The notes below the pieces were generated by a model that was given only the letters and a program-made list of their open reading frames with translations, did not search any database and had not been told where the DNA came from. This document shows, piece after piece, positions 982-40,625 of a stretch of 42,019 nucleotides of DNA. The stretch lies in the UHGV virus genome UHGV-0388215. One strand, written 5' to 3'. This stretch comes from a virus. The translations under genes and the position numbers were made by a program. Every line of letters starts with the position of its first letter. Within the stretch, counting starts at the first letter, position 1.

Positions 982-1785
982 CTAGTCTCCAAATTCAGGA
1001 ATAACGGCCCGGTACGTGCATTGGCACCCCGGAAGCTCACCGCAAAGCACTTTGCGCTTCACGTCAGAGTCGTAAAGACCTTCCGTGATGACGAACTTTT
1101 TCCCATTCATGAGCTGGTGGGTATGGCGGCTCGTTTTCTTTCCCGGCACATGTACCCAGATGCCTTCGGTGATGCCGAGTTCCTTGTCCTGCACCCGCTT
1201 AAGGGCCTCGGTCGCCTTATTGGACTGGTCGCGGGCAATGAATTCTGCCCGGCGCCGGGTGATCTCGTACCGCTTGTGCAGTTCGTCGGCGAGGAACTCC
1301 ACGTCCCGGCCCATGCTGGCGGAACGCTGTACTAGCCCCGTTACTTCCGTGAAATAGTGCTGCGGAATGGATTTGATGAGATTGACATTTTCCTCGAAGA
1401 GGGCCCGCGCCACGTCGCTCATGGCCCTGCTTCCCTCCATCCTCACCGTGAAGCCCGCATCTTTGAGGGCCTGCCTCATGCTGGCTTCCGTGCGCCGCCT
1501 CGTACTGCCCACGAACTCCCGTGCAAAACTCTCCGCGCTTTCCCTCCACCGCCTCGTCCAGTACCGGAACAGGCGCTTGAGGCGGTCTTGCAGGTCACTC
1601 GCCGGGGAATCCTGCGCTATGCGGGTTTCCTGCTTCCTGTACTCGGCGCGCAGCCACCAGATGACGGACCGCTGCATCTCGTCGAGGAGGGACACCAGCC
1701 GCTTCCGGTATTTCGCCCGGATACCCGCGTTGGGCTTAATGGAGCGGATGACCTTAGCCATAGACGGCCCCGGCCTTATCCACAT
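982..1785 (-). CDS. head morphogenesis protein (Mu gpF / SPP1 gp7 family)
   Basis: 267 aa; downstream of portal with 32-nt overlap; sequence character of Phage_Mu_F family (from memory, no search run). Confidence 0.7.
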   Translation of the reverse strand: MWIRPGPSMAKVIRSIKPNAGIRAKYRKRLVSLLDEMQRSVIWWLRAEYRKQETRIAQDSPASDLQDRLKRLFRYWTRRWRESAESFAREFVGSTRRRTEASMRQALKDAGFTVRMEGSRAMSDVARALFEENVNLIKSIPQHYFTEVTGLVQRSASMGRDVEFLADELHKRYEITRRRAEFIARDQSNKATEALKRVQDKELGITEGIWVHVPGKKTSRHTHQLMNGKKFVITEGLYDSDVKRKVLCGELPGCQCTYRAVIPEFGD

Positions 1786-3304
1786 CGTCGATGTCAGGCA
1801 TCAATCCCTCTTCCCCGGCTTCCGGCAGTGCGTCAGGCATTCCGTTGCCCTGCGGCACTTCCGCTGGGTCTATGTCGGAAAAACCGCTGTCCGGGTCACT
1901 GGCAAGGGACTGTCGGGCCTCTTCCTGAGAGATGACATCCCGATCCATGTAGACGGCGATGGTATCGGCCTTAGTCTTCTGGAGCGTCGCAAGGGCCGCC
2001 CTGTCCTCCCCTCCGAGGGGCGCGAAGTCGAACGTCACGGACGGATCGATGGTTCCGCGCAGGTGAAGCTGGATACAGTCGAGCGCCTTTTTGATGCCGT
2101 CGCGCAGGACTTTCTCCTGCTGGCTCGTGATATGGTCGTAATAGTTGCGGATGTCCGATTCGCCCGTGGCATTGAACCCGGACGGGCTGATGCCGAGCAG
2201 CTTGACCGCCGGAGTGCGGTTCAGGGCGGCGAGGATTTCGAGGGACTGGCGCACAATGTCGGTTACGCCGGAAAGCGGCGTTTCCAGCTTGACCACGTCT
2301 TCCGATTCTTTGTCGACGGCAAGCACGCCGTCATTGGTCATGGTCTGGATCATGTACCGGATGCGGGTATCGATCTGCGCGGTTCCCCCGGCTGAGTACA
2401 GGATGTCTTCCATCTTCGTCTTGAAGACGGTCAGCGAGAATTTGGTCAACAACCGGGCTTCCGCCGTGCGGCACTCCCGAAAGTGCATTACATAATCCCA
2501 AAGTGTCTGCGCCTGCGGGATGCCTAAAAAATTGTATGCGGGACGCAGCAGCACCGGGCATTCGTTCGCCACCAGCCGGATGAGCCGGGAAGCATGCACA
2601 CGCTGCCCAAGCACCCACCACCAGCGCGGACGGAAGTAGTCGGGTTCGAGCGGCGAAAGGCTGTTGTAGTCGCCGGGGAAAACGTTCACCGGGTCGATGA
2701 CGACGAAGCGCAGGAGTCCGCCGGGTTTCAGTTCCGCCGAGTACGGGCTGATGTTCAGTGGTCGCTCCAGCTCTTGCCCGATGGCCCCAGTGTCGATGAA
2801 GAGGAACGCGCCGCCCTCGTACCCCACAAGCTCCACGGCCTCATGAAAAAGACGCTGGAGCCCCAATTTCTTGCAAGCCTGTGCAAGGTCGGTAAGCAGG
2901 GCGTCATCGTTGCCCTCCCCTTCGCGCTTAAACTCAATCCATGCACGGGTCATGTCATCAGATACCGTCTGGATACAGGCCCGAACTAGACCATCCTGGG
3001 CAAGTTGCTGGAGAACACCGTACCCCATGAACTGGTTAGTGATCCCCACCCCAAGCTCAAGCGAGTGCTGGAGCAGGGAGTAGACGCCGGAATCCGCAAG
3101 CCGCGCGTCCATCGCAAGCTGCACCTCTTCGGGCGCGCCGAGCGTCTTCGCAGGACCGTACATCCGGCTGATGTCGTCGGGCGTAGGCGGCAAAGGTTGA
3201 GCAAGGCCGCCGCGCACGTCCGGGGAGAGATTCAGACGGCGCGACGGCTGCACGGCTTGCGGGGCTATGGAGGTAGCGTGGCGATAAGTGCGCTTCTTGC
3301 TCAT
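1754..3304 (-). CDS. portal protein (Mu gp29-like, DUF935)
   Basis: 516 aa; size and composition typical of DUF935 portals; lies between terminase large subunit and gpF-like gene. Confidence 0.75.
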   Translation of the reverse strand: MSKKRTYRHATSIAPQAVQPSRRLNLSPDVRGGLAQPLPPTPDDISRMYGPAKTLGAPEEVQLAMDARLADSGVYSLLQHSLELGVGITNQFMGYGVLQQLAQDGLVRACIQTVSDDMTRAWIEFKREGEGNDDALLTDLAQACKKLGLQRLFHEAVELVGYEGGAFLFIDTGAIGQELERPLNISPYSAELKPGGLLRFVVIDPVNVFPGDYNSLSPLEPDYFRPRWWWVLGQRVHASRLIRLVANECPVLLRPAYNFLGIPQAQTLWDYVMHFRECRTAEARLLTKFSLTVFKTKMEDILYSAGGTAQIDTRIRYMIQTMTNDGVLAVDKESEDVVKLETPLSGVTDIVRQSLEILAALNRTPAVKLLGISPSGFNATGESDIRNYYDHITSQQEKVLRDGIKKALDCIQLHLRGTIDPSVTFDFAPLGGEDRAALATLQKTKADTIAVYMDRDVISQEEARQSLASDPDSGFSDIDPAEVPQGNGMPDALPEAGEEGLMPDIDDVDKAGAVYG

Positions 3305-3440: not shown

Positions 3441-4187
3441 ATGTACAAAAGCATCATGGTGTTTCTGCTGGCCGCGCTAGTTATGACGTCCGAGGCGCAA
3501 GCCGCGGGCAACGAATGGAACGATTCGTTCAGCAAGGCTAAAAAGACGCTGGAACGGCAGGTCTATTATGACCATCGGATCACGCTCTACTGCGGGGCGG
3601 CGTTCGACGAGAAGAAGAACGTCACTCTCCCGGAGGGTTTTACTGCCGCGAAGCACGAGAAGCGGGCCGGGAAGGTGGAATGGGAACACGTGGTCCCCGC
3701 CGAGAACTTCGGGCAGGCGTTCGCTGAGTGGCGCGAGGGCGACGCGCAGTGCGTGGACAACAGGGGAAAGGCGTTCAAAGGCCGCAAGTGCGCCGAGAAG
3801 GTCAGCCGGGAATACAGGCTCATGCAGGCTGACCTGTACAATCTGTATCCGGCCATCGGCGCGGTGAATGCCCTACGCCAGAACTACAACTTTCAGATGT
3901 TGCCGGGAGAAAAGCCGGACTTCGGGAGTTGTGAGATGAAGATTGCGGACAGAAAGGCCGAGCCGCCTATCAGATCAAGGGGACAAATTGCCCGGACCTA
4001 CAAGTATATGGCCGACGCCTACGCCCCGCGCTACCGCATGAGCCGCCAGCAGACGCAGCTCATGGACGCATGGGACAAGATGTATCCGGTTGATGCGTGG
4101 GAATGCACGCGGGCCAGACGTATTGAAAGACTACAAGGTAACGAGAACCCTTTTGTGAAGGAAAGATGTCAAGAAGCAGGACTCTAA
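3441..4187 (+). CDS. endA: secreted DNA endonuclease I (EndA/Dns family) with N-terminal signal peptide
   Basis: MYKSIMVFLLAALVMTSEAQA signal peptide; motifs EWEHVVPAENFG and DLYNLYPAIGAVNALRQNYNF match Endonuclease_1 family (E. coli EndA); opposite strand to flanking structural genes; AT-rich upstream region with palindrome ATAGATTAATCTAT. Confidence 0.8.
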   Translation: MYKSIMVFLLAALVMTSEAQAAGNEWNDSFSKAKKTLERQVYYDHRITLYCGAAFDEKKNVTLPEGFTAAKHEKRAGKVEWEHVVPAENFGQAFAEWREGDAQCVDNRGKAFKGRKCAEKVSREYRLMQADLYNLYPAIGAVNALRQNYNFQMLPGEKPDFGSCEMKIADRKAEPPIRSRGQIARTYKYMADAYAPRYRMSRQQTQLMDAWDKMYPVDAWECTRARRIERLQGNENPFVKERCQEAGL

Positions 4188-4201: not shown

Positions 4202-5662
4202 TTATATTCTCCTTCCCATACGTGGCTGATTGAGGATGGCGGGGTTGATGCACATGGGCCGCTTGGTATCGAAATCACGCAGCGCCTGCGTGGTGGCGTC
4301 CACTTGGTCGTCGTGGGGCGCTCCGGGGAACTGCGTCAGTTCCGCGACGTACTCCCGCGCCCACGGGCAATGCTCCGGGTGCGGAAGCAGGACGTTCCCG
4401 GCCTCGAAGAACGTGGTCACGGCATGGGCACGGGCGGTCTTGCTGCCGTCCGGCTCTACCGGAATAATACCGGGCACGGCATGTCTCAGCGCGTCGATGA
4501 CCGCCGGGCCGTTGGCCTTGTCCTCCACCAGCTTGCGGGCTGCGCCGGGCCATTTGGCGGCGAGCGCCCGGAACGCGGCGACCGTGTCCGTAAATCCCAT
4601 GCGCCGCCGGACCTGATCGAGGAGGTAGCGGTCGGCCCCCTTGCGGCCCCACACCTGCCCCACGACAAAGTCGGTATCGTCGCCGTCCTTGAACGTCATG
4701 TCCCACGAGATAAGGAGCTGGTCGAACTGCTCCGGCAGGTCTTTGGGGAGCCAGAACCGCAGCCACTCAGATTTGAAGATGGCGCCGCCGTCTGGGGTAG
4801 GCCGCTGCTGGTACAGGGCCTCCCAGTCGCGTGTGCCGAGGGCTTTCTTGATGGCAAGAAGCTGCTCCAACGAGTAGCGTTCCGGGTGCAGGGCTTCCCC
4901 GGCCTTGCGGTGGGGCTCGTCTTCCGTGGCGATGGCGGGGAAGTTCACCACGCGCCAGTGATCGCCCTCCCCCCGCGCCGCCGCTTCGAGCAGCCGCCCC
5001 GAGAGGTCGGCCATGTGCCAGCGGGTGTTGATGACGAGGATGCCCCCGCCGGGCGCGAGGCGCGTGTACAACGTGGACGTGTACCAGTCCCAGACGTTCT
5101 GGCGGTTGGTCGGGGAATCGGCGGACGCCCGATCTTTGAATGGGTCGTCGACGATGACGATATGCCCGCCCATGCCCGTGATGCCGCCGCCCACGCCAGC
5201 GGAACGGTAGCAGCCAGCGTGACCCACGATTTCGAAGATATCCGAGTTGCGGAGATAAGAACCGTTCCCGACGGTGCGGATATTCTTGCCGTAAAGGGCT
5301 GTTCCCGGGAAGAGTTCCCGGTATTCCGGACTGTCGATGACGCGCTGAACGTCGCGGTTCATGCGCGAGGACAGGTCGGCGGCGTAGCTCGTTGAAATGA
5401 CGGATAGATCGGGATAGCGGCCCAAGGCGTAGGCCGGGAAGCGGCGGGAGGCCAGCTCGCTTTTCCCGTGGCGGGGCGGCATGGTCAGCATGAGGCGCGG
5501 GGAACGCCCGGCTACGACGTCGGCAAGGAAGGCATCCAGCTCGGAACAGATTTCCTCGTGCACCCAGCCCATGCGGTAGCCGGGCATGGTGTAGCGCACA
5601 AAGGCCGCGAGACAGCTCCGGGCCAGCGCGCGGCGGATTTCCGCAAGCACTTCACCCGCCAT
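4202..5662 (-). CDS. terminase large subunit
   Basis: 486 aa; Walker A-like MPPRHGKS, Walker B-like VIVDDP, C-terminal nuclease acidic motif DDQVDA. Confidence 0.9.
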   Translation of the reverse strand: MAGEVLAEIRRALARSCLAAFVRYTMPGYRMGWVHEEICSELDAFLADVVAGRSPRLMLTMPPRHGKSELASRRFPAYALGRYPDLSVISTSYAADLSSRMNRDVQRVIDSPEYRELFPGTALYGKNIRTVGNGSYLRNSDIFEIVGHAGCYRSAGVGGGITGMGGHIVIVDDPFKDRASADSPTNRQNVWDWYTSTLYTRLAPGGGILVINTRWHMADLSGRLLEAAARGEGDHWRVVNFPAIATEDEPHRKAGEALHPERYSLEQLLAIKKALGTRDWEALYQQRPTPDGGAIFKSEWLRFWLPKDLPEQFDQLLISWDMTFKDGDDTDFVVGQVWGRKGADRYLLDQVRRRMGFTDTVAAFRALAAKWPGAARKLVEDKANGPAVIDALRHAVPGIIPVEPDGSKTARAHAVTTFFEAGNVLLPHPEHCPWAREYVAELTQFPGAPHDDQVDATTQALRDFDTKRPMCINPAILNQPRMGRRI

Positions 5663-6197
5663 CCCGCCCCGTCTCCCTGAACGCCTCCCGCGTCAGCCGG
5701 AGCAGCTCATCCGGGGAAAGACGAGAGAGATCGACCGGACGCGGAGACATGGAGCCGTCGGACGACGTATGATCCACTGCGGCCTTGTCCACGATGCCCC
5801 ACACCTTACGCTCACATTCCTGCCTGATCTTGATCGTCTCGGCGGTGATCTTGGCGAGCTTGGCCTTCTCGAAGCTGCCCAGGGACAACGCCTCATCAAT
5901 GAGGGCCTGATGCCGATCCCACTCCCGCTGGTGGCGGGTGATGACGGCGGCCTTGGCTTCGGCGGCGCGGTTCAGGGCTTCGGCCTTTTTTTGAGGGTTG
6001 CAGCCTGCAACCACGCCCGCAACCTTGGCCTCCGCCATGCGGTTCACGGTGCCGGAAATATCCTGCACCCAGCCTTCGGCCCGGATGCGCTTCTGGATGG
6101 CCGTCCGGCTCACACCGTACCGCTTGGACAGATCGGACTGGCTCGCCCCCACTTCGTACTCGGCCCGGATGGATTCCCAATCAAATCGTGCCGCCAT
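5652..6197 (-). CDS. terminase small subunit-like HTH protein
   Basis: 181 aa immediately upstream of and overlapping TerL start; N-terminal HTH (SQSDLSKRYGVSRTAIQKRI). Confidence 0.55.
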   Translation of the reverse strand: MAARFDWESIRAEYEVGASQSDLSKRYGVSRTAIQKRIRAEGWVQDISGTVNRMAEAKVAGVVAGCNPQKKAEALNRAAEAKAAVITRHQREWDRHQALIDEALSLGSFEKAKLAKITAETIKIRQECERKVWGIVDKAAVDHTSSDGSMSPRPVDLSRLSPDELLRLTREAFRETGRDGG

Positions 6198-19586: not shown

Positions 19587-19778
19587 ATGAGTGAGGCAGA
19601 AAAACTGCAAAAAATTGCCCAGATTATGTTGGAAAAAGAGAAGAAAGAAAAAGAAGTTGCAGCACTTAACCGCATGATTGCCGAACTTCTAGGAATATCC
19701 TCTACAGAAACAATGAAATTACCGAACAAGGTCTATTCATCAAATCAGTTTAAAGCTGCATGTAGGGGGGCAAAGTGA
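19587..19778 (+). CDS. small basic/coiled-coil protein, positional candidate for excisionase (RDF)
   Basis: 63 aa, low GC, GTGA overlap with integrase start; assignment by position only. Confidence 0.3.
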   Translation: MSEAEKLQKIAQIMLEKEKKEKEVAALNRMIAELLGISSTETMKLPNKVYSSNQFKAACRGAK

Positions 19779-20773
19779 GTTGGTCACAGAGATCTGACGG
19801 TCGATTCATTGTTAAATACAAAGACAAAGGACTATGGAAGCAGATTTCTTTCACAGATAAAGAGAAGGCCATACACTTTGACGCAATGCATAACGCTCCA
19901 AAAGAAGAAATTCGTCTCACTATGGGAGAATTGATCGTCAAGTATCTACATGGAAATCCGGATCTTTTTCATGAAACACGCGAGCGCATTATCTGGTTGT
20001 ATGCCGATGGTGGTCCATGCGCCTTCATGCGCGACAAATATGCAGATTCTCTAAATCGCCAAGACCTCGAACAGCTTCGGGAAAACATACGGGAACGCAA
20101 AGCCAGCAACAACACGTCAAACCACTATCAAGCATATACAAGGGCAATATTGGCGTGGGGAGTCGATCAAGGTCTACTTGTGCTTAACCCTTGGCGAGAT
20201 TTCAAAAAACTTAAAATATCAAAACCAATTCATACCGCAACGTTACTAGATCTGAAACGCTTATATCCTTTTCTTCCTCCCTATCTGCAATGGGCCGCAA
20301 AGACGGCCTTTTTTTTGGCACTTCGCCCGGGGATGGTTGAGCTTTTCAGCTTGAAATGGGATGCCTTCGATTTTAGGCGGGGAATCGTCTCAATCCGGCA
20401 AGGAAAAACAGGAAAGATCAAAAGTGTCTATCCGAACCCTGTGTACATGCAAGAAGCCGCCGCACGCTGTGCCGAAGACTTTAAACGAGGGGTAGCGCTG
20501 GTTTGCCACAACAACGGGAAACCAGTTCTGTCTTACCATAAGATGTGGGGAAAGGCGTGCCGACAGGCAGGGGTCAATTTACGATTCTATGACGTTCGAC
20601 ATCTTGCGGCTACGGAAATGCTCGCCCGTGGCGCTGACCTCGCCGCAGTCGCCGCGCAACTCGGTCACGCATCAGTCACGACAACCGGAAGCACATATGC
20701 CCACGTTACCCCGGGAGGGCAATCACATGCCGGATCACTCATGCCCGCAATCGACATCGAACCGAACTCATAA
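19775..20773 (+). CDS. int: tyrosine integrase
   Basis: 332 aa; catalytic R...HxxR (VRHLAAT) ... H..Y (HASVTTTGSTYAHV) arrangement; GTG start; lower GC; adjacent to tRNA-derived att core. Confidence 0.9.
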   Translation: MSWSQRSDGRFIVKYKDKGLWKQISFTDKEKAIHFDAMHNAPKEEIRLTMGELIVKYLHGNPDLFHETRERIIWLYADGGPCAFMRDKYADSLNRQDLEQLRENIRERKASNNTSNHYQAYTRAILAWGVDQGLLVLNPWRDFKKLKISKPIHTATLLDLKRLYPFLPPYLQWAAKTAFFLALRPGMVELFSLKWDAFDFRRGIVSIRQGKTGKIKSVYPNPVYMQEAAARCAEDFKRGVALVCHNNGKPVLSYHKMWGKACRQAGVNLRFYDVRHLAATEMLARGADLAAVAAQLGHASVTTTGSTYAHVTPGGQSHAGSLMPAIDIEPNS

Positions 20774-35197: not shown

Positions 35198-35215
35198 CAC
35201 CGTGAACAAAGTTCG
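35198..35215 (-). promoter_or_regulatory. late-operon motif CACCGTGAACAAAGTTCG (copy 3)
   Basis: 23-40 nt upstream of ORF 34729..35175. Confidence 0.6.
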
Positions 35216-35216
35216 G

Positions 35217-36005
35217 CTATGCGGCACGGCGAAGGCGGTACTTGCCCAGCATGTTCAGGTCGTTTTTCAGGGCCAGCCGGAAGGCTTCGATCACGTCGAC
35301 GTGGTACGCCTTCACGCTCCCGAAACGGCTGTCCTCGATTTCCCGGATTTCGTGATCCATACGGCGGGACATATCGGAAAGCTTGCGTCCTGCGACGGAG
35401 TACGCGGCTGGCGTATCTGCGAAGACGTCAAGGAACCACGGGATGCCCTTCACGGACTTGTAGTCCCTGCCCCGCCCAAGTTCGTTCTCAAGAGCCGCAG
35501 CCTTGCGTACGGCGGCAGAGGCGGTTGCCATCGCGGTGGCCTCGCGGCGTGAACCGATTTCGGCCTTGGTGCGGATAGCCTCGTCGCGCTCGGCTTCGAT
35601 GCGCCTGATGGTGTCCTGCGCGACCAGCACGGCGCGGGCAAGGATGGCTTCGGGGGTATCGTCCGGCTTGGCTATCAGGTAACCGCCCACCTTACGAATG
35701 GAGGGGATAACCTCATGCGTCACCCACCGCTTGAACGCCTTGGCTTCGGGCTTGCGGGAACGCAGGATGAGGGAATACAGGCCCGGTTCGGAAATAATTG
35801 TCATTTCCTGCTTTCCACCGGGGGTGTCTATACTATGGACGCCCTTTTCATCCTCATCCAGAAGTGCAAGGCTTGAACGAGGGTTGCCCATTTCAAGAAT
35901 ATCGCACACGTCTTTCGCCACGAACCATGGTTGCACCTTGCGCTCAACAACGCGAAGGGAACCGAACTTTTCATGCTCGAAAAGAGCCAAGGGGGAATTT
36001 TCCAT
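35217..36005 (-). CDS. Bro-N domain protein (KilA-C/antirepressor-like)
   Basis: Start at MENSPLALFEHEKFGSLRVV...QPWFVAKDVCDILEMGNP = Bro-N signature; fourth late-motif copy about 55 nt upstream. Confidence 0.6.
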   Translation of the reverse strand: MENSPLALFEHEKFGSLRVVERKVQPWFVAKDVCDILEMGNPRSSLALLDEDEKGVHSIDTPGGKQEMTIISEPGLYSLILRSRKPEAKAFKRWVTHEVIPSIRKVGGYLIAKPDDTPEAILARAVLVAQDTIRRIEAERDEAIRTKAEIGSRREATAMATASAAVRKAAALENELGRGRDYKSVKGIPWFLDVFADTPAAYSVAGRKLSDMSRRMDHEIREIEDSRFGSVKAYHVDVIEAFRLALKNDLNMLGKYRLRRAA

Positions 36006-36058
36006 CGCTGCACCTCCATAGTGTTTTGGAGATGATGCAGCATGGCGGCGTGGGGGCA

Positions 36059-36076
36059 CACCGTGAACAAGGTTCG
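36059..36076 (-). promoter_or_regulatory. late-operon motif CACCGTGAACAAGGTTCG (copy 4)
   Basis: Upstream of Bro-N gene 35217..36005. Confidence 0.6.
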
Positions 36077-36179
36077 TACAGGCAAAAGAAAAGCCCCTTT
36101 CGGGGCGGAGGGCGGCGGCGGTGGATTTTTGGAACGGCCTATGCCATGATAGCCTCATCTATAATAAGGGGGATGATGT

Positions 36180-36779
36180 ATGGCTACCTACATCAAGTTT
36201 CTGGCAGGGGACTACGGGAAAGAAGAATATATTTACATTAAGAATAAAAACAAGTTGCGTTGCTCTTCAAAAATGTTTGGAGCAAAGGAACTTTTTCTTT
36301 CCAGTATTGCCTCTTGCGAAGTAGCCAATGAAGAATCGGTCAAAAAGCTCGGCGGAACTTTGGGAGGCGCACTTGTCGGCGGCGTCTTGCTTGGAGGCAT
36401 CGGAGCGGTTGCGGGTGCGGTAGCTGGAGGCAAGACGACTGAGTCTACCGTCATTATTGAGTTCAAAAATGGAAATAAGGCATTGGCAAAGGTGAATAGC
36501 CCCATGATGGAGGTTATCCGCGCACACCTTTTTGATGACCAATTGGCCCAAGAGCGTGGAGAACCAAACCCGCTTATACATCATGAACGTTCTCAGACGC
36601 CCCCTAAAAAAATTGCCCTTATCATTGGAGTGCTGATAACAGTAGTGCTAGCCGTATTGTGGCTGAGTTGTGCCCTCCAAACGCCGCCCAATACGAATGG
36701 GGCCTTGTTATGGGGAATCCTCACTATCCTTTCCGGACTGTATTCTTGGAAAACATATAAGAAAATATATAAATCTTAA
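36180..36779 (+). CDS. membrane protein with glycine-zipper segment and two C-terminal TM helices
   Basis: 199 aa, low GC; GGTLGGALVGGVLLGGIGAVAGAVAGG GxxxG array; C-terminal TM helices IALIIGVLITVVLAVLWL and LLWGILTILSGLYSW. Confidence 0.5.
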   Translation: MATYIKFLAGDYGKEEYIYIKNKNKLRCSSKMFGAKELFLSSIASCEVANEESVKKLGGTLGGALVGGVLLGGIGAVAGAVAGGKTTESTVIIEFKNGNKALAKVNSPMMEVIRAHLFDDQLAQERGEPNPLIHHERSQTPPKKIALIIGVLITVVLAVLWLSCALQTPPNTNGALLWGILTILSGLYSWKTYKKIYKS

Positions 36780-36814
36780 TATATTAACTTGAATCCGAAC
36801 AGGGAGAGAGGACC

Positions 36815-37885
36815 ATGGATTTTTCGGAAAGAATTGCTGAATTGTCGAAAAAGGTAAAGAATCTGGGAGATAGCCTCAAGACCGAAGAGGCCACGAAAAA
36901 CGCCTTGGTGATGCCTTTCATCGCGGCCCTGGGATACGACGTTTTCAACCCTGCGGAAGTCGTGCCCGAATTTTCAGCCCCCATCGGCGAATATAAGGAC
37001 GCCCGCGTGGACTATGCGATTCTTGTGGACGGCAAGCCTATCCTTCTTCTGGAGTGCAAGGCTTTGGGCACGTCTCTCGACATGAAGCACTGCAACCAGC
37101 TACAGCTTTACTTCCACGGAACGGAAGCCCCCATTGCCATCCTGACGGACGGCAACCGTTACCGGTTCTATTCTGATCTTGAAACAGCCAACAAAATGGA
37201 CAGCAAGCCCTATATGGAGTTCGTCCTTGACGATATGGACGAAATGTTGCTCCCGGAACTGCGCAAGCTGGCAAAAGGCAAGTTTGATCGGGATGCCTGC
37301 ATGAGCGCGGCAAACGAACTCAAGTACAACCGAGAGTTCAAACGCCTCATGTCCGAACAAATGGAAAAGCCGCATGAAGATTTCGCACGCTTTTTCATCG
37401 GCCAGACGTATGATGGACGTATCACGCAAAATGTTCTGGATCGCTTCACTCCAATTCTTACCGCTGCGCTTGACCAGTTCATCAACGACCGCATCAACGA
37501 CCGATTGAAAAATGCCATGACGCAGCAGAAACCGGAAATTGTAGAGATAGAGTCCGAAGATACCCCACAAGGAAAAGAGCAGGATTCGCGTATAGTCACC
37601 ACCGAGGAAGAAAAAGAGGCGTATTACCTTGTCAAATCGCTTCTGATGGGCACCGTTGATCCGGGGCGCGTAGCCATGCGGGACAGTATCAGCTACTGCT
37701 CCATCCTTCTTGACGACAACAGGCTCAAGCCTCTGTGCCGCCTGTATTTCAACGGAAAACAGTGGAGGGTCGGACTGTTTGATGGGGAGAATAAGGACGC
37801 AAAGGAAGACATCGAAAAACTGGAAGATATTATCCCCTTTGCGGATCGAATCCGGGCTACGGCCTTGAAATACGATAACAAGTAA
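36815..37885 (+). CDS. HsdR-N (type I restriction R-subunit N-terminal, PD-(D/E)XK-like) domain protein with helical C-terminal domain
   Basis: EEATKNALVMPFIAALGYDV...GEYKDARVDYAIL.DGKPILLLECKALGTSLD...QLQLYFHGTEAPIAILTDGNRYRFY matches HSDR_N consensus (E..K..LV.PFL..LGY...GR.DYAL...P...IEAK...L...Q...Y..FAILTNG.....Y); low GC. Confidence 0.6.
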   Translation: MDFSERIAELSKKVKNLGDSLKTEEATKNALVMPFIAALGYDVFNPAEVVPEFSAPIGEYKDARVDYAILVDGKPILLLECKALGTSLDMKHCNQLQLYFHGTEAPIAILTDGNRYRFYSDLETANKMDSKPYMEFVLDDMDEMLLPELRKLAKGKFDRDACMSAANELKYNREFKRLMSEQMEKPHEDFARFFIGQTYDGRITQNVLDRFTPILTAALDQFINDRINDRLKNAMTQQKPEIVEIESEDTPQGKEQDSRIVTTEEEKEAYYLVKSLLMGTVDPGRVAMRDSISYCSILLDDNRLKPLCRLYFNGKQWRVGLFDGENKDAKEDIEKLEDIIPFADRIRATALKYDNK

Positions 37886-38236
37886 AACTTTCCAACGTGG
37901 CGTTGCCCGCCAATGATGAAGAACATCCAGATGCGGGCAATGCCACTGCTTTTCTCTTTACATTTTCCGAGTTTTGTGCTGTCTTTTGTGCACGGGCTTC
38001 AGAACCCCGTAGGCGGACAAACGCCACCCGATAGCATGGCGCTTTTTTATGCCCTTTTTCCAAAGTCAAGAGTTTTTCTTGGCTGTCTTTTGGGCTATTA
38101 TTGCATCCAATGTTTGCCGGGTGTGGCGGATATGTCCAAGCGAAAGCTAAAGGCCGCCAGCGGTTCCTACGCCGTTCTGAACACCCGGCGCTTTCTATTT
38201 CAGAGAGTGCAATTCAGACAACGTAGGAGTTGCATT

Positions 38237-39154
38237 ATGGAAATGGCCCTAATCTTCAACGAATTTATCTTCACGCCTGTCACTCACCAAAACAGTCTCT
38301 GGATTCGTTCTTCTGAATTGGCTAAAGCACTTGGCTATTCCGACGACCGCAAGGTTGGTGTGCTCTATGCCCGACATAAGGATGAATTCTCCAATAATAT
38401 GAGCGTGGTTCTCAATTTGAGTACCACGGATGTACCCGCTATGAATCGCATCTTTTCCCTTCGGGGCTGCCATTTGGTTGCGATGCTAGCGCGTACTCCT
38501 ATTGCCAAGGCGTTCCGCCGTTGGGTGCTGGATGTGATTGAACAGTACGGCGACAGGGTGCCCGTTGCCGAACCCGTGACGCTCAACGATGAGCTGATCA
38601 GCGCGTCGGAACGTGCCGAGCTCAAGCTCATCGTAGACGCCAAGCTCTCGACCTACCCGGCGGCGGTGCAGGGCAAGGCCCGCGCCGAGATATGGGCAAA
38701 GTTCAACCGCCACTTCCGCATTGCCGAATACAAGCAGCTCCCGGCCCGGCTTATGCCCGAGGCCCGCGAGTTCCTGCTTTCCGTCCGCGTCCGCGCCATC
38801 AACGCCATACCCACGGCGGAATCCGCGCTCCCGTACCCGTCGCTTACCACCTCCAGCGTCTACGCCGACCGCATGAAGGCCCTCGACCGCCTCGAAGAGG
38901 AATGGATCGAATTTGCGGGGGAAACCCGCTCTCGGCTGCACCAATTCGTCAACGAGCTCCTGCGCGTCAAGGAGAGCACTTATCCCGAATTGCTGAACCG
39001 GATATGTTCCCGGCAGAACATCTCGAAAGACCCGCTCCTCGGCATCCTGCAATCCAACTCGTACAACGCCCAGACGTGGATTGACGCGGGAATCTCGGAA
39101 ATGAGAGCGGCAATCCGTGCCGCGAAGACCGCGAACAGGTTGATGCTAGGATAG
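38237..39154 (+). CDS. Bro-N domain antirepressor-like protein
   Basis: Start at MEMALIFNEFIFTPV...LWIRSSELAKALGYSD (Bro-N/AntA pattern) with AGGAG RBS 7 nt upstream; upstream part of track ORF 37913.. judged non-coding. Confidence 0.55.
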   Translation: MEMALIFNEFIFTPVTHQNSLWIRSSELAKALGYSDDRKVGVLYARHKDEFSNNMSVVLNLSTTDVPAMNRIFSLRGCHLVAMLARTPIAKAFRRWVLDVIEQYGDRVPVAEPVTLNDELISASERAELKLIVDAKLSTYPAAVQGKARAEIWAKFNRHFRIAEYKQLPARLMPEAREFLLSVRVRAINAIPTAESALPYPSLTTSSVYADRMKALDRLEEEWIEFAGETRSRLHQFVNELLRVKESTYPELLNRICSRQNISKDPLLGILQSNSYNAQTWIDAGISEMRAAIRAAKTANRLMLG

Positions 39155-39555
39155 CCCTTGACCCCGAGCACGGGAATGGCTATTGAAAAAAGGAAGGGCG
39201 GCAAGTGGTGACACACCTGCCGCCCCGTGGGACACCCTCCCGAGATTGATCATCTCAAGTTTGCGCCCCGGTTGGAGTTCGCACCTCCTACCGGGGCAAC
39301 TGCGTTATTGGTTCAGCATGAACCGAATCACCACAGCCACAATGACGCCGCCAATCACTTGGACAGCGACGTCCCGGAGGAAGTGTCGCATGGAGTACCC
39401 TCCTTTCAGGAGAGTGCCCCACAGCGGTTTTCTATCCTTTCCCTATTCCCTTGTCAAAGAACGACTATCAGAACACCGAGGCGCATTTCTGCTTACTTTT
39501 TGCATGTAGAGGACAGAAGTTATCATTACTGAGCAGAGCCCAAAGATGTAAAGAA

Positions 39556-39592
39556 AGCCCCAACCGTTAAACAGGCGGTTGGGGCTTTCGCA
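39556..39592. terminator. rho-independent terminator downstream of capsid gene
   Basis: AGCCCCAACCG-TTAAACAG-GCGGTTGGGGCT perfect hairpin with flanking T/A runs. Confidence 0.6.
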
Positions 39593-39611: not shown

Positions 39612-40625
39612 TTACATGCCTGTCATCTGCGCAAAGGCAAAGGGCATGAGCACGATACCGCCGTAGGTGGTGCCGACGAACTTCTGACGGAAGCTGGACA
39701 GGTCGGGCACGACGCGTCCGGCACGCATCTTTTCTCCGAAGGCCAGCGTGCCGGATCGCTGCCCGTTCACTTCGGGGGCGATGAGGAACATGGTTTCCCC
39801 GGCGGTCATGCTGTGCAGCTCGGGGACGGTCACGATGTCAATGCGGGTGAAGTACCGCTTCAACATATCCAGCACGGACACGTTGAAATCGGTAGCCGCG
39901 CCGAGGCGAACGGCCAGTTCGGGGGAGAGGCAGAGCTTGAGGGGCGTGTCCTTGTCAATAAGGCCGCTGGACTGCTCGGAAAGCTGCGCGAACAGGGCGA
40001 GGACGTCATTGTAGATCTGCACCGTGGTCTTGTCGGCCCATTTCGTGGAGCCGCCCGTGCCCGTGGCCCCTGCGGTGATCGCAGCAGGGAGGTTCGGATC
40101 GTTGAGGATACCGTAGATTTCCTTCCCGGCGACGCCGAGCAGGTAGAAACGGTTCTGGTCGATGTCGATGACGTTGGCCGCCGCACGCTGCTTGGAGGCA
40201 GCGAGGTTGACTTTCGCCGTGCTCGACATGTCCACTTCAAAGTCGCCGTAGGTGATGGACGTCTGGAAGACGTACTGCACGCGGGTCTGCCATTCGGAGT
40301 TCACGCCCGAAGTCGTGCCGTTGGCATAGTCGGAATACGGCTCGGTCTTTCCGGTCATTTCGTCCACGCGCCACTTCATGTACGGGGTCGTCCAGTCGCC
40401 CTTCTTCTCTTCACCGAAGATTTCACGGGCGCGCCGGGGCGCGGTCAGGATTTCGATGACCATCGGGTCGATATACGCCAGAAGCTCGGCGGGGACGGTC
40501 GTGTTCGGAGTAGTGATGAGCGCGGCGTCCTGCGCAATGCGGGCGCGGTTCTCCGGGGTTGCCCACATGCGGGCGCCCGGGAAGATAAAGCCGTAGCGCT
40601 TGGCCTGTTCAAAAGTCGGATTCAT
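39612..40625 (-). CDS. major capsid protein (probable)
   Basis: 337 aa; AGGAGG RBS; follows scaffold and small head protein; followed by strong terminator; family not assignable without search. Confidence 0.55.
   Translation of the reverse strand: MNPTFEQAKRYGFIFPGARMWATPENRARIAQDAALITTPNTTVPAELLAYIDPMVIEILTAPRRAREIFGEEKKGDWTTPYMKWRVDEMTGKTEPYSDYANGTTSGVNSEWQTRVQYVFQTSITYGDFEVDMSSTAKVNLAASKQRAAANVIDIDQNRFYLLGVAGKEIYGILNDPNLPAAITAGATGTGGSTKWADKTTVQIYNDVLALFAQLSEQSSGLIDKDTPLKLCLSPELAVRLGAATDFNVSVLDMLKRYFTRIDIVTVPELHSMTAGETMFLIAPEVNGQRSGTLAFGEKMRAGRVVPDLSSFRQKFVGTTYGGIVLMPFAFAQMTGM

Follow-up and report, generated by a model that had tools for sequence, protein, structure and literature searches.

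The 42,019-nucleotide virus genome UHGV-0388215, analysed at its full length and called the window here, carries two adjacent genes between its major capsid and head-completion genes. Gene 1 (36180..36779, plus strand) is an open reading frame (ORF) for a 199-residue PH_gly_zipper protein, identified through PF27000 labels on 98% identical proteins. Gene 2 (36815..37885, plus strand) encodes a 356-residue protein, a predicted stand-alone PD-(D/E)XK endonuclease on the evidence of the ORF, Pfam, phrog_4225 and an AlphaFold2 (AF2) model. An original prediction, made from the letters of the sequence, had read the two as an undescribed defence or abortive-infection pair. The layout that it gave is confirmed by the ORFs and the sequence: both genes lie on the same strand, opposed to the structural genes and separated from each other by 35 nt, and each ATG is preceded at 6-10 nt by a purine-rich ribosome-binding site (AAGGGGGA for gene 1, GGGAGAGAGGA for gene 2). 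Head-completion and tail genes lie below 35175 on the minus strand, and the major capsid gene (39612..40625, minus strand; PF09950 on orthologues) forms the other boundary of the hotspot. The GC content (fraction of G and C) of the two genes is indeed lower, at 0.458 for gene 1 and 0.504 for gene 2 against 0.615 for the capsid gene and 0.576 for the whole window; at third codon positions (GC3) the values are 0.47, 0.63 and 0.83 for gene 1, gene 2 and the capsid gene. The low-GC block spans approximately 36.0-38.56 kb and is wider than the two genes, taking in a spacer and the Bro-N half of the gene downstream. Bro-N genes stand on both flanks, as had been noted, and are matched by Pfam.

The window has the hallmarks of a temperate phage, with a portal, a terminase, RecT, a RecE-like PDDEXK protein and a tyrosine integrase (19775-20773). 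Its head and tail genes are of the E217-like myophage type according to Pfam labels on related loci; the names of structural genes in the window were taken from Pfam labels on loci with 94% DNA identity. Gene 2 is 100% identical to the copy in Bilophila wadsworthia strain ATCC 49260 (locus L095) and relatives of gene 1 are named from Bilophila, so on these matches we assign Bilophila wadsworthia as the host. Gene 1 in ATCC 49260 has a different, 330-residue form, and the window phage is therefore closely related rather than identical.

Gene 2 matches HSDR_N (PF04313; E=3e-13, 50.5 bits, gathering cut-off 25.1) and HSDR_N_2 (PF13588; E=6e-8, 33.2 bits, gathering cut-off 25). The HsdR N-terminal PD-(D/E)XK domain recognised in the original prediction is thus borne out, with both scores above the gathering cut-off and the catalytic residues intact. 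Residues 1-354 of the 356 align with phrog_4225, annotated 'endonuclease' (E=1.4e-114). In a word-indexed search, 6,485 homologues were found among 8,000 scored candidates; a length of 350-370 residues and the same architecture are common to thousands of them, and identity is about 45% between bacteria of different phyla and archaea. The homologue P0134, 49% identical to gene 2, is named 'predicted type IV restriction endonuclease' by its Joint Genome Institute (JGI) source. In a survey of PD-(D/E)XK proteins, HSDR_N, HSDR_N_2 and COG2810 are placed together in group 48 (Steczkiewicz et al., 2012; PMC3424549). These matches place gene 2, over its full length, in the HSDR_N / COG2810 / phrog_4225 family, with intact predicted catalytic residues. 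The family is not undescribed: it is catalogued, as COG2810 'predicted type IV restriction endonuclease' and as phrog_4225 'endonuclease', is very large, and has a function that is only predicted.

The nuclease domain comprises residues 1-137 (36815..37225, plus strand), as defined by an alignment of 46 sequences, the AF2 model and Foldseek. E24, D66, E80, C81 and K82 are invariant in the 46 homologues, down to 47% identity, and correspond to a classical D...ExK site. The codons of D66 (37010-37012, plus strand) and of E80-C-K82 (37052-37060, plus strand) were read in the sequence, and E24 lies on a helix upstream of D66. The AF2 model has a mean predicted local distance difference test score (pLDDT) of 87.4 and is of high confidence over residues 1-137. 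Its secondary structure and pLDDT place a helical middle region at residues 143-236 (37241..37522, plus strand), followed by a disordered linker at residues 238-258. Residues 264-355 (37604..37879, plus strand) are modelled as an alpha-beta5-alpha domain, in which E266, D290, R309, F312 and N313 are invariant; we regard this domain as a putative DNA- or ligand-binding module. The helical C-terminal part of about 200 residues that had been described earlier therefore exists as the helices of residues 143-236 and gives way, further on, to the linker and the alpha-beta5-alpha domain.

The best Foldseek matches of the nuclease domain in the PDB are the Type IIG enzyme DrdV, HsdR, Cas4 and proteins labelled 'restriction endonuclease-like fold', all of them weak (E>=3.5e-3), and the full model returned weak matches to the nuclease domain only. 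A fold search of the C-terminal domain against BFVD gave nothing informative, a gene 2 profile matched PDB sequences at chance level (E=0.06), and no NCBIfam family matched gene 2. The possibility that gene 2 mimics HsdR as an anti-restriction decoy was rejected, given the invariance of the catalytic residues. HsdR docks onto the methylase through its C-terminal region, not through an HSDR_N-type domain.

No ResIII or Helicase_C match was found in the 356 residues of gene 2 at E<=1. The cassette in the window contains neither hsdM nor hsdS, and no methyltransferase or specificity family recurs near approximately 150 homologues: the 150 downstream neighbours include one DNA methyltransferase (MethyltransfD12, D12-class), and none is present among the 25 most frequent families of 64 upstream neighbours. 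The earlier view that neither gene belongs to a named defence system agrees with PADLOC-DB 2.0.0, which includes Kiwa, Zorya, Gabija, AbiE and the PDC candidates and gave no system match for gene 1 or gene 2. Gene 1 had no PADLOC hit of any kind; those of gene 2 and 45 homologues are weak (E>=2e-5) and fall on the nuclease module that occurs in fusion with Type I/IIG methyltransferases, and LmuB, MTase_II and mad2 appear as scattered single weak matches.

Genome scans with gene 2 yielded 578 viral and 592 chromosomal matches, and neighbourhoods were examined among the matches listed. Relatives are present in the chromosomes of many phyla and of archaea, with no conserved neighbour among the matches listed, and the plasmid collection holds 23 full-length copies. 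The upstream side of the viral loci outside the Bilophila group is more uniform: of 64 distinct neighbours, 19 are Peptidase_S24 and 18 are HTH_3 proteins, which by family membership are cI-like repressors. Where such genes are clustered with a gene 2 relative, the two share a strand and are separated by 8-95 nt. The gene order is cI, gene 2 relative and integrase in Fusobacterium FNU_1P, repressor and gene 2 relative in Corynebacterium Juicebox, and HicAB followed by the gene 2 relative in a Porphyromonas phage. In Enterococcus EG-TP1, a helix-turn-helix (HTH) gene and a metalloprotease gene precede the gene 2 relative and an integrase lies three genes downstream. At least eight integrases are among the downstream neighbours, with no family recurrent. 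The distribution is that of a self-sufficient mobile-element cargo gene, which temperate phages place in lysogen-expressed operons. It is this location in lysogeny and repressor operons from which we infer a defence function for gene 2.

The assignment of gene 1 to PH_gly_zipper (PF27000) rests on precomputed labels of near-identical proteins (P0001 and P0002, 98% identical), and the called gene 1 counterparts in loci L005-L014 carry the same label. Gene 1 further matches phrog_20920 (E=3e-12, residues 5-117) and phrog_888 (E=2e-10, residues 15-97). An exhaustive phmmer search found 608 representatives of the family at E<=1e-3 that share residues 1-120, mostly bare domains of 113-135 residues. 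Against 50,697 phage records, neither tblastn with gene 1 nor megablast with the region gave a match. The PH_gly_zipper domain, the conserved part of the protein, spans residues 1-118 (36180..36533, plus strand) in the alignments, and homology to the sister phage L011 ends exactly at 36533. The alignments place the glycine zipper, residues 57-85 (36348-36434, plus strand), within this domain, with a Kyte-Doolittle maximum of 2.07 over residues 64-82. The rest of the protein is a variable C-terminal module (36534..36779, plus strand), recognised from hydropathy and from breaks of homology in near-identical phages. It contains one strong transmembrane (TM) segment, residues 143-168 (36606-36683, plus strand; Kyte-Doolittle maximum 2.87), and a second, weak hydrophobic stretch at approximately 174-191 (Kyte-Doolittle mean below 1.4 over 19 residues). 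The glycine-zipper membrane protein of the original prediction is retained with two corrections: what had been taken for a soluble N-terminal domain plus a zipper is the single domain PF27000, and just one of the two proposed C-terminal TM helices (143-168) is strongly hydrophobic.

The C-terminal half of gene 1 changes rapidly. Near-identical phages carry 187- and 330-residue forms, and DNA homology in the tail region breaks at 36571-36800 in L005 and L016. The C-terminal anchor (residues 128-197) and the C-terminal end of the 151-residue DUF4236 (PF14020) proteins P0017 and P0018 have 44% identity, and the anchor appears to be a shuffled, swappable module. A 365-residue DUF4236 protein is also found in the cassette of L267. 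Gene 1 is probably an inner-membrane protein with a PH-like domain and an embedded glycine zipper, in a topology predicted from hydropathy. In 13-14 of approximately 76 other phage loci, a bare PH_gly_zipper gene of 115-150 residues lies between an XkdN-like tail assembly chaperone gene and a tape measure gene (Phage_TAC_5 in 13, TMP_3 in 14). These are PBSX/XkdN-type myophages (L218, L223, L225, L229, L232, L233, L240, L241, L243, L246 and others, around position 6001), and the position between chaperone and tape measure genes suggests a role in tail assembly or ejection there. In the remaining phages the family is encoded near repressors, integrases or lysis genes.

Are the two genes a pair? 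From the side of gene 2, we searched all ORFs within 6 kb of 174 loci with tblastn and a hidden Markov model (HMM) of the PH_gly_zipper family. Outside the Bilophila-phage group, a gene 1 relative lies near gene 2 in 2 of approximately 150 loci, L096 and L170. From the side of gene 1, 3 of 80 PH_gly_zipper phage loci have a gene 2 relative, all three in the Bilophila-phage group, and 76 of the 80 have none. L096 is a related Desulfovibrio prophage with the same hotspot; the gene order is reversed and the start of gene 1 overlaps the stop of gene 2. The sole co-occurrence of both families outside related Desulfovibrionaceae phages is L170 (4704-10440), an island in Akkermansiaceae with a tyrosine integrase next to it. 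Its gene 2 homologue is followed by a 490-residue Zn-ribbon and TM2 membrane protein, a 262-residue protein combining DUF4428 (Zn-ribbon-like), PH_gly_zipper and SHOCT, and a 297-residue hydrophobic protein, so that PH_gly_zipper stands two genes downstream of gene 2.

Close relatives of the window phage show the separation directly. The sister phage L011 has 94% DNA identity to the window up to 36533 and again from 39548; between these points it holds different cargo, and only the PH_gly_zipper domain of gene 1 is kept. The cargo (6620-9176 in L011, and also in L012) encodes a 103-residue coiled-coil protein, AcrIF11_ADP_ribosyl (PF26151), a 136-residue protein, a 334-residue protein that matches Cas_Csy2 (E=1e-10, above the gathering score) and a 73-residue protein. 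The presence of a Csy2/Cas5f-like protein near an AcrIF11-like enzyme suggests a type I-F anti-CRISPR cluster. L248, a natural variant of the same phage, has lost 952 bp of gene 2 through a clean internal deletion (36869-37820 of the window; approximately 6677-6678 in L248), and its gene 1 is intact, with gene 1 and flanks 91% identical to the window. Since one-gene variants exist and co-occurrence fails from either starting gene, the two genes are separable in nature in both directions and are distributed independently.

A conserved two-gene defence system is thus not supported. Conservation of the pair in other genomes, which the original prediction had proposed to examine, amounts to the 2 of approximately 150 and 0 of 76 loci given above. 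It had also named homologues found separately, with unrelated neighbours, as evidence that would speak against a defence or abortive-infection pair, and this is largely what we observe: the families mostly occur apart among unrelated neighbours, and L248 and L011 keep gene 1 without an intact gene 2. The description of the locus as an accessory insert in a variable temperate-phage hotspot stands, as shown by the exchange of cargo between sister phages.

We suggest, with a probability of about 0.6, that the region of approximately 36.0-38.6 kb is a mosaic accessory ('moron') cassette with two independent functions, gene 2 being a stand-alone restriction-type nuclease and gene 1 an envelope protein. 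The cassette would occupy a recombination hotspot in an E217-like temperate myophage whose host is Bilophila wadsworthia, with the major capsid gene on one side and the head-completion genes on the other, and the two genes would be co-transcribed and functionally independent. The N-terminal PD-(D/E)XK domain of gene 2, of the type with which Type I HsdR and Type IIG enzymes begin, would cut DNA; the long helical region probably serves spacing or dimerisation, and the flexibly linked C-terminal alpha/beta domain probably recognises DNA or a ligand. The prophage would express gene 2 to cut incoming foreign DNA, a role that we infer because gene 2 lacks a helicase motor, is not accompanied by a conserved methyltransferase or specificity partner, and is co-transcribed with the repressor in many temperate phages. 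Discrimination between self and non-self would be built into the protein itself, as in Type IV (modification-dependent) enzymes; a Type IV-like restriction nuclease that acts independently of a methylase is the probable identity of gene 2. For gene 1, a role at the envelope, such as superinfection exclusion, is speculative.

Several observations weigh against this interpretation. A consensus scan for promoters and terminators found no credible sigma-70 promoter for the cassette. Our search of the literature, which covered HsdR-N, COG2810, PH_gly_zipper and defence by prophages, turned up no functional study of either family, and the sole mention of the gene 2 family is correlative, its presence in a Campylobacter jejuni strain that resists phages (PMC8713573). 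Anti-defence genes occupy the same hotspot in the sister phage L011. Finally, among close relatives of gene 2, a clade of 70-83% identity in E217-like Desulfovibrionaceae phages, the gene is nearly always beside a small envelope protein, and in six contexts (L021, L255, L256-258, L262, L266 and L267) a tRNA_anti-like protein with a signal peptide is encoded directly downstream.

The last of these points bears on the first alternative, in which gene 2 and the adjacent envelope or membrane protein would form a two-component defence or abortive-infection module whose partner is exchangeable among non-homologous envelope proteins; for example, the membrane partner might sense or perturb DNA injection, or kill, with the nuclease as sensor or second effector. 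Stated for the E217-like Desulfovibrionaceae phages, the COG2810-type nuclease would be one half of a modular exclusion cassette and a fast-evolving envelope protein the other: PH_gly_zipper here and in L096, a secreted tRNA_anti-like OB-fold (oligonucleotide/oligosaccharide-binding) protein elsewhere, often translationally coupled, with both components directed at one step, the entry of foreign DNA. Most phage contexts of the 70-83% clade do flank gene 2 with an envelope protein, PH_gly_zipper being upstream in the window group and downstream, with the stop/start overlap, in L096; the third lineage, L170, has PH_gly_zipper-SHOCT two genes downstream. The tRNA_anti-like genes (PF12869, OB-fold type: L021 7098-7796, L255 5098-5625, L256 5098-5616, L262 4098-4799, L266 3062-3592, L267 4110-4808) start 0-3 nt from the gene 2 stop or overlap it. 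The match to the family is clear in L021 (E=1.7e-7), is a precomputed PF12869 label in L262, and is weak or absent in the others. These partners fall into two size classes, of 172-176 and 232-233 residues, and are 37-43% identical within each class, compared with 71-83% for the nucleases beside them; partner divergence far exceeds nuclease divergence, and the linkage has therefore outlasted much divergence.

On the other hand, close chromosomal copies of gene 2 (75% and 66% identical) are solitary, and no partner is conserved at the scale of the family. Family-wide, there is no excess of membrane-like neighbours at position +1 of gene 2 (20 of 53, compared with 19 of 48 at -2) by a crude heuristic of ORF calling and hydropathy. 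The test from the side of gene 1 (3 of 80) speaks against a module as well, as do the sister phages in which gene 1 persists and an intact gene 2 does not, and a periplasmic OB-fold partner has no direct access to a cytoplasmic nuclease. The contexts belong to kin phages, so the linkage could equal block inheritance in one hotspot, and block inheritance within one phage group accounts for it adequately. We consider the two-component module unlikely, both in its general form and as a modular cassette of this phage group. A 171-residue ORF after gene 2 in L005-L010 was examined as a lost OB-fold partner and rejected; it is not similar to the tRNA_anti-like proteins, and its counterpart in the window is the non-coding spacer.

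Gene 2 could instead serve the phage's own lytic programme or counter-defence, by degrading host or competitor DNA or by processing DNA in replication or recombination. Such a role would fit the AcrIF11-like ADP-ribosyltransferase and the Cas_Csy2-like protein in the same hotspot of L011, the location of the cassette within the late structural region, and the other nucleases of the phage, including Endonuclease_1 and the RecE-like PDDEXK protein. Gene 2 is, however, transcribed opposite to the late operon; many unrelated temperate phages hold it in a lysogeny operon, directly after the repressor and beside the integrase; and members of the family are also frequent on chromosomes, among archaea and in the plasmid collection, at a distance from phage replication genes. 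We find this explanation as improbable as the two-component module. Less probable still is that gene 2 is a free-standing homing-type endonuclease, a selfish gene propagated by cleavage of alleles that lack it, with gene 1 adjacent by chance: patchy presence between near-identical phages, the clean L248 deletion, cassette swaps, insertion between conserved structural genes and the combination of a nuclease with a putative DNA-binding domain would suit it, but full-length identity of approximately 45% across phyla and archaea, thousands of members and non-allelic contexts are atypical of homing endonucleases, no intron or intein is associated, and the recurrent position in lysogeny operons better fits a function expressed in the lysogen.

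On the side of the head-completion genes lies the first Bro-N family gene, a probable anti-repressor-type protein (35217..36008, minus strand; Pfam Bro-N E=1e-24, phrog_130 Ant E=3.5e-51). Its likely start is an internal ATG at 36008, which gives 263 residues; relatives are called at 262-263 residues. An 18-nt direct repeat, CACCGTGAACAA(A/G)GTTCG, at 35198-35215 and 36059-36076 (17 of 18 positions matching) brackets this minus-strand gene exactly; it could be the scar of an insertion, or else a regulatory site present twice. Between this gene and the divergent gene 1, the consensus scan alone marks a terminator-like short GC hairpin with a T-run (36093..36106, minus strand). TATAAT at 36160 was considered as a promoter and rejected, being too near the ribosome-binding site and lacking a -35 element at 16-18 nt.

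Downstream of gene 2 follows a 352-nt low-GC spacer (37886..38236, plus strand; GC 0.494) with no convincing gene, 77-83% conserved with L005 and L096; Rfam and tRNA scans of the window, spacer included, gave no match. The second Bro-N family gene (38237..39154, plus strand; Pfam Bro-N E=4e-8, phrog_2127 E=2.7e-36) is the third plus-strand gene of the cassette, with a start and a ribosome-binding site that were read in the sequence, and its GC content is split between a Bro-N half of 0.495 and a phage-like C-terminal half of 0.618. A hairpin scan located a GC-rich 13-bp hairpin with a T-run at the far edge of the cassette (39195..39226, minus strand), and a perfect 14-bp hairpin follows the major capsid gene (39553-39589). 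Within the variable stretch 39155-39548 we noted a 28-residue ORF, MRHFLRDVAVQVIGGVIVAVVIRFMLNQ (39305-39391, minus strand), which is absent from the sister phage L011. It has a hydrophobic core between arginines, a strong Shine-Dalgarno sequence, AAGGAGGG, approximately 7 nt upstream and, downstream on its own strand, the 13-bp GC hairpin with T-run (39226-39195); its sequence is suggestive of a small membrane peptide or of a gene resembling type I toxins. The structural region holds a second opposite-strand insert, an Endonuclease_1 gene (PF04231, E=3.6e-30; 3441-4187, plus strand) between the portal gene (1754-3304, minus strand) and the large terminase gene (4202-5662, minus strand). The Endonuclease_1 family is also present in the accessory cassette of the related phage L255.

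The original claim of a two-gene defence system thus loses most of its weight, and interest shifts to gene 2. Its family consists of a huge number of conserved single-gene nucleases that are absent from PADLOC and recurrent in the repressor operons of temperate phages, and there is good reason to regard it as a candidate restriction-type defence of prophages, one that is cheap to test. A concrete side question that can be tested is the coupling, specific to one clade, of gene 2 to fast-evolving envelope proteins; a modular cassette, if real, would be an undescribed defence architecture with replacement of one partner by a non-homologous one.

Compared with known systems, gene 2 is closest to its own family, COG2810 / phrog_4225 / HSDR_N, of which it is a full-length member with no structural difference and whose function is only predicted. 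With HsdR of Type I systems (EcoR124I, PDB 2w00) and the Type IIG/L enzyme DrdV (PDB 7lo5) it shares the type of N-terminal PD-(D/E)XK domain. Unlike them, it has no superfamily 2 (SF2) translocase or helicase, no methyltransferase domain and no hsdM or hsdS neighbours, and it possesses a helical region and an alpha/beta C-terminal domain of its own.

RexAB of lambda and Kiwa (KwaAB) are exclusion systems composed of a membrane and a cytoplasmic protein, encoded by obligate gene pairs. Genes 1 and 2 resemble them in being adjacent prophage genes, apparently on one transcript, for a small membrane protein and for a protein of the cytoplasm related to nucleic acids, but they have no sequence match to these systems in PADLOC and are not obligately paired. 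Ltp of phage TP-J34 is a lipoprotein for superinfection exclusion that targets the incoming tape measure protein. Gene 1 is similarly a small envelope protein that a prophage encodes at an accessory position and whose C-terminal half changes fast, and an exclusion role for it is speculation; the PH_gly_zipper family differs from Ltp-type proteins in that it may be tail-related where it is encoded beside the tape measure gene.

McrA of the Escherichia coli e14 prophage is a Type IV, modification-dependent enzyme with an HNH nuclease and a separate reader domain. The nuclease of gene 2 is of a different type and the predicted fold of its C-terminal domain was not recognised as that of a known modified-base reader, yet the overall design is alike: a single-gene, methylase-independent predicted nuclease on a temperate phage, in which the domain for cleavage is separate from a putative one for recognition.

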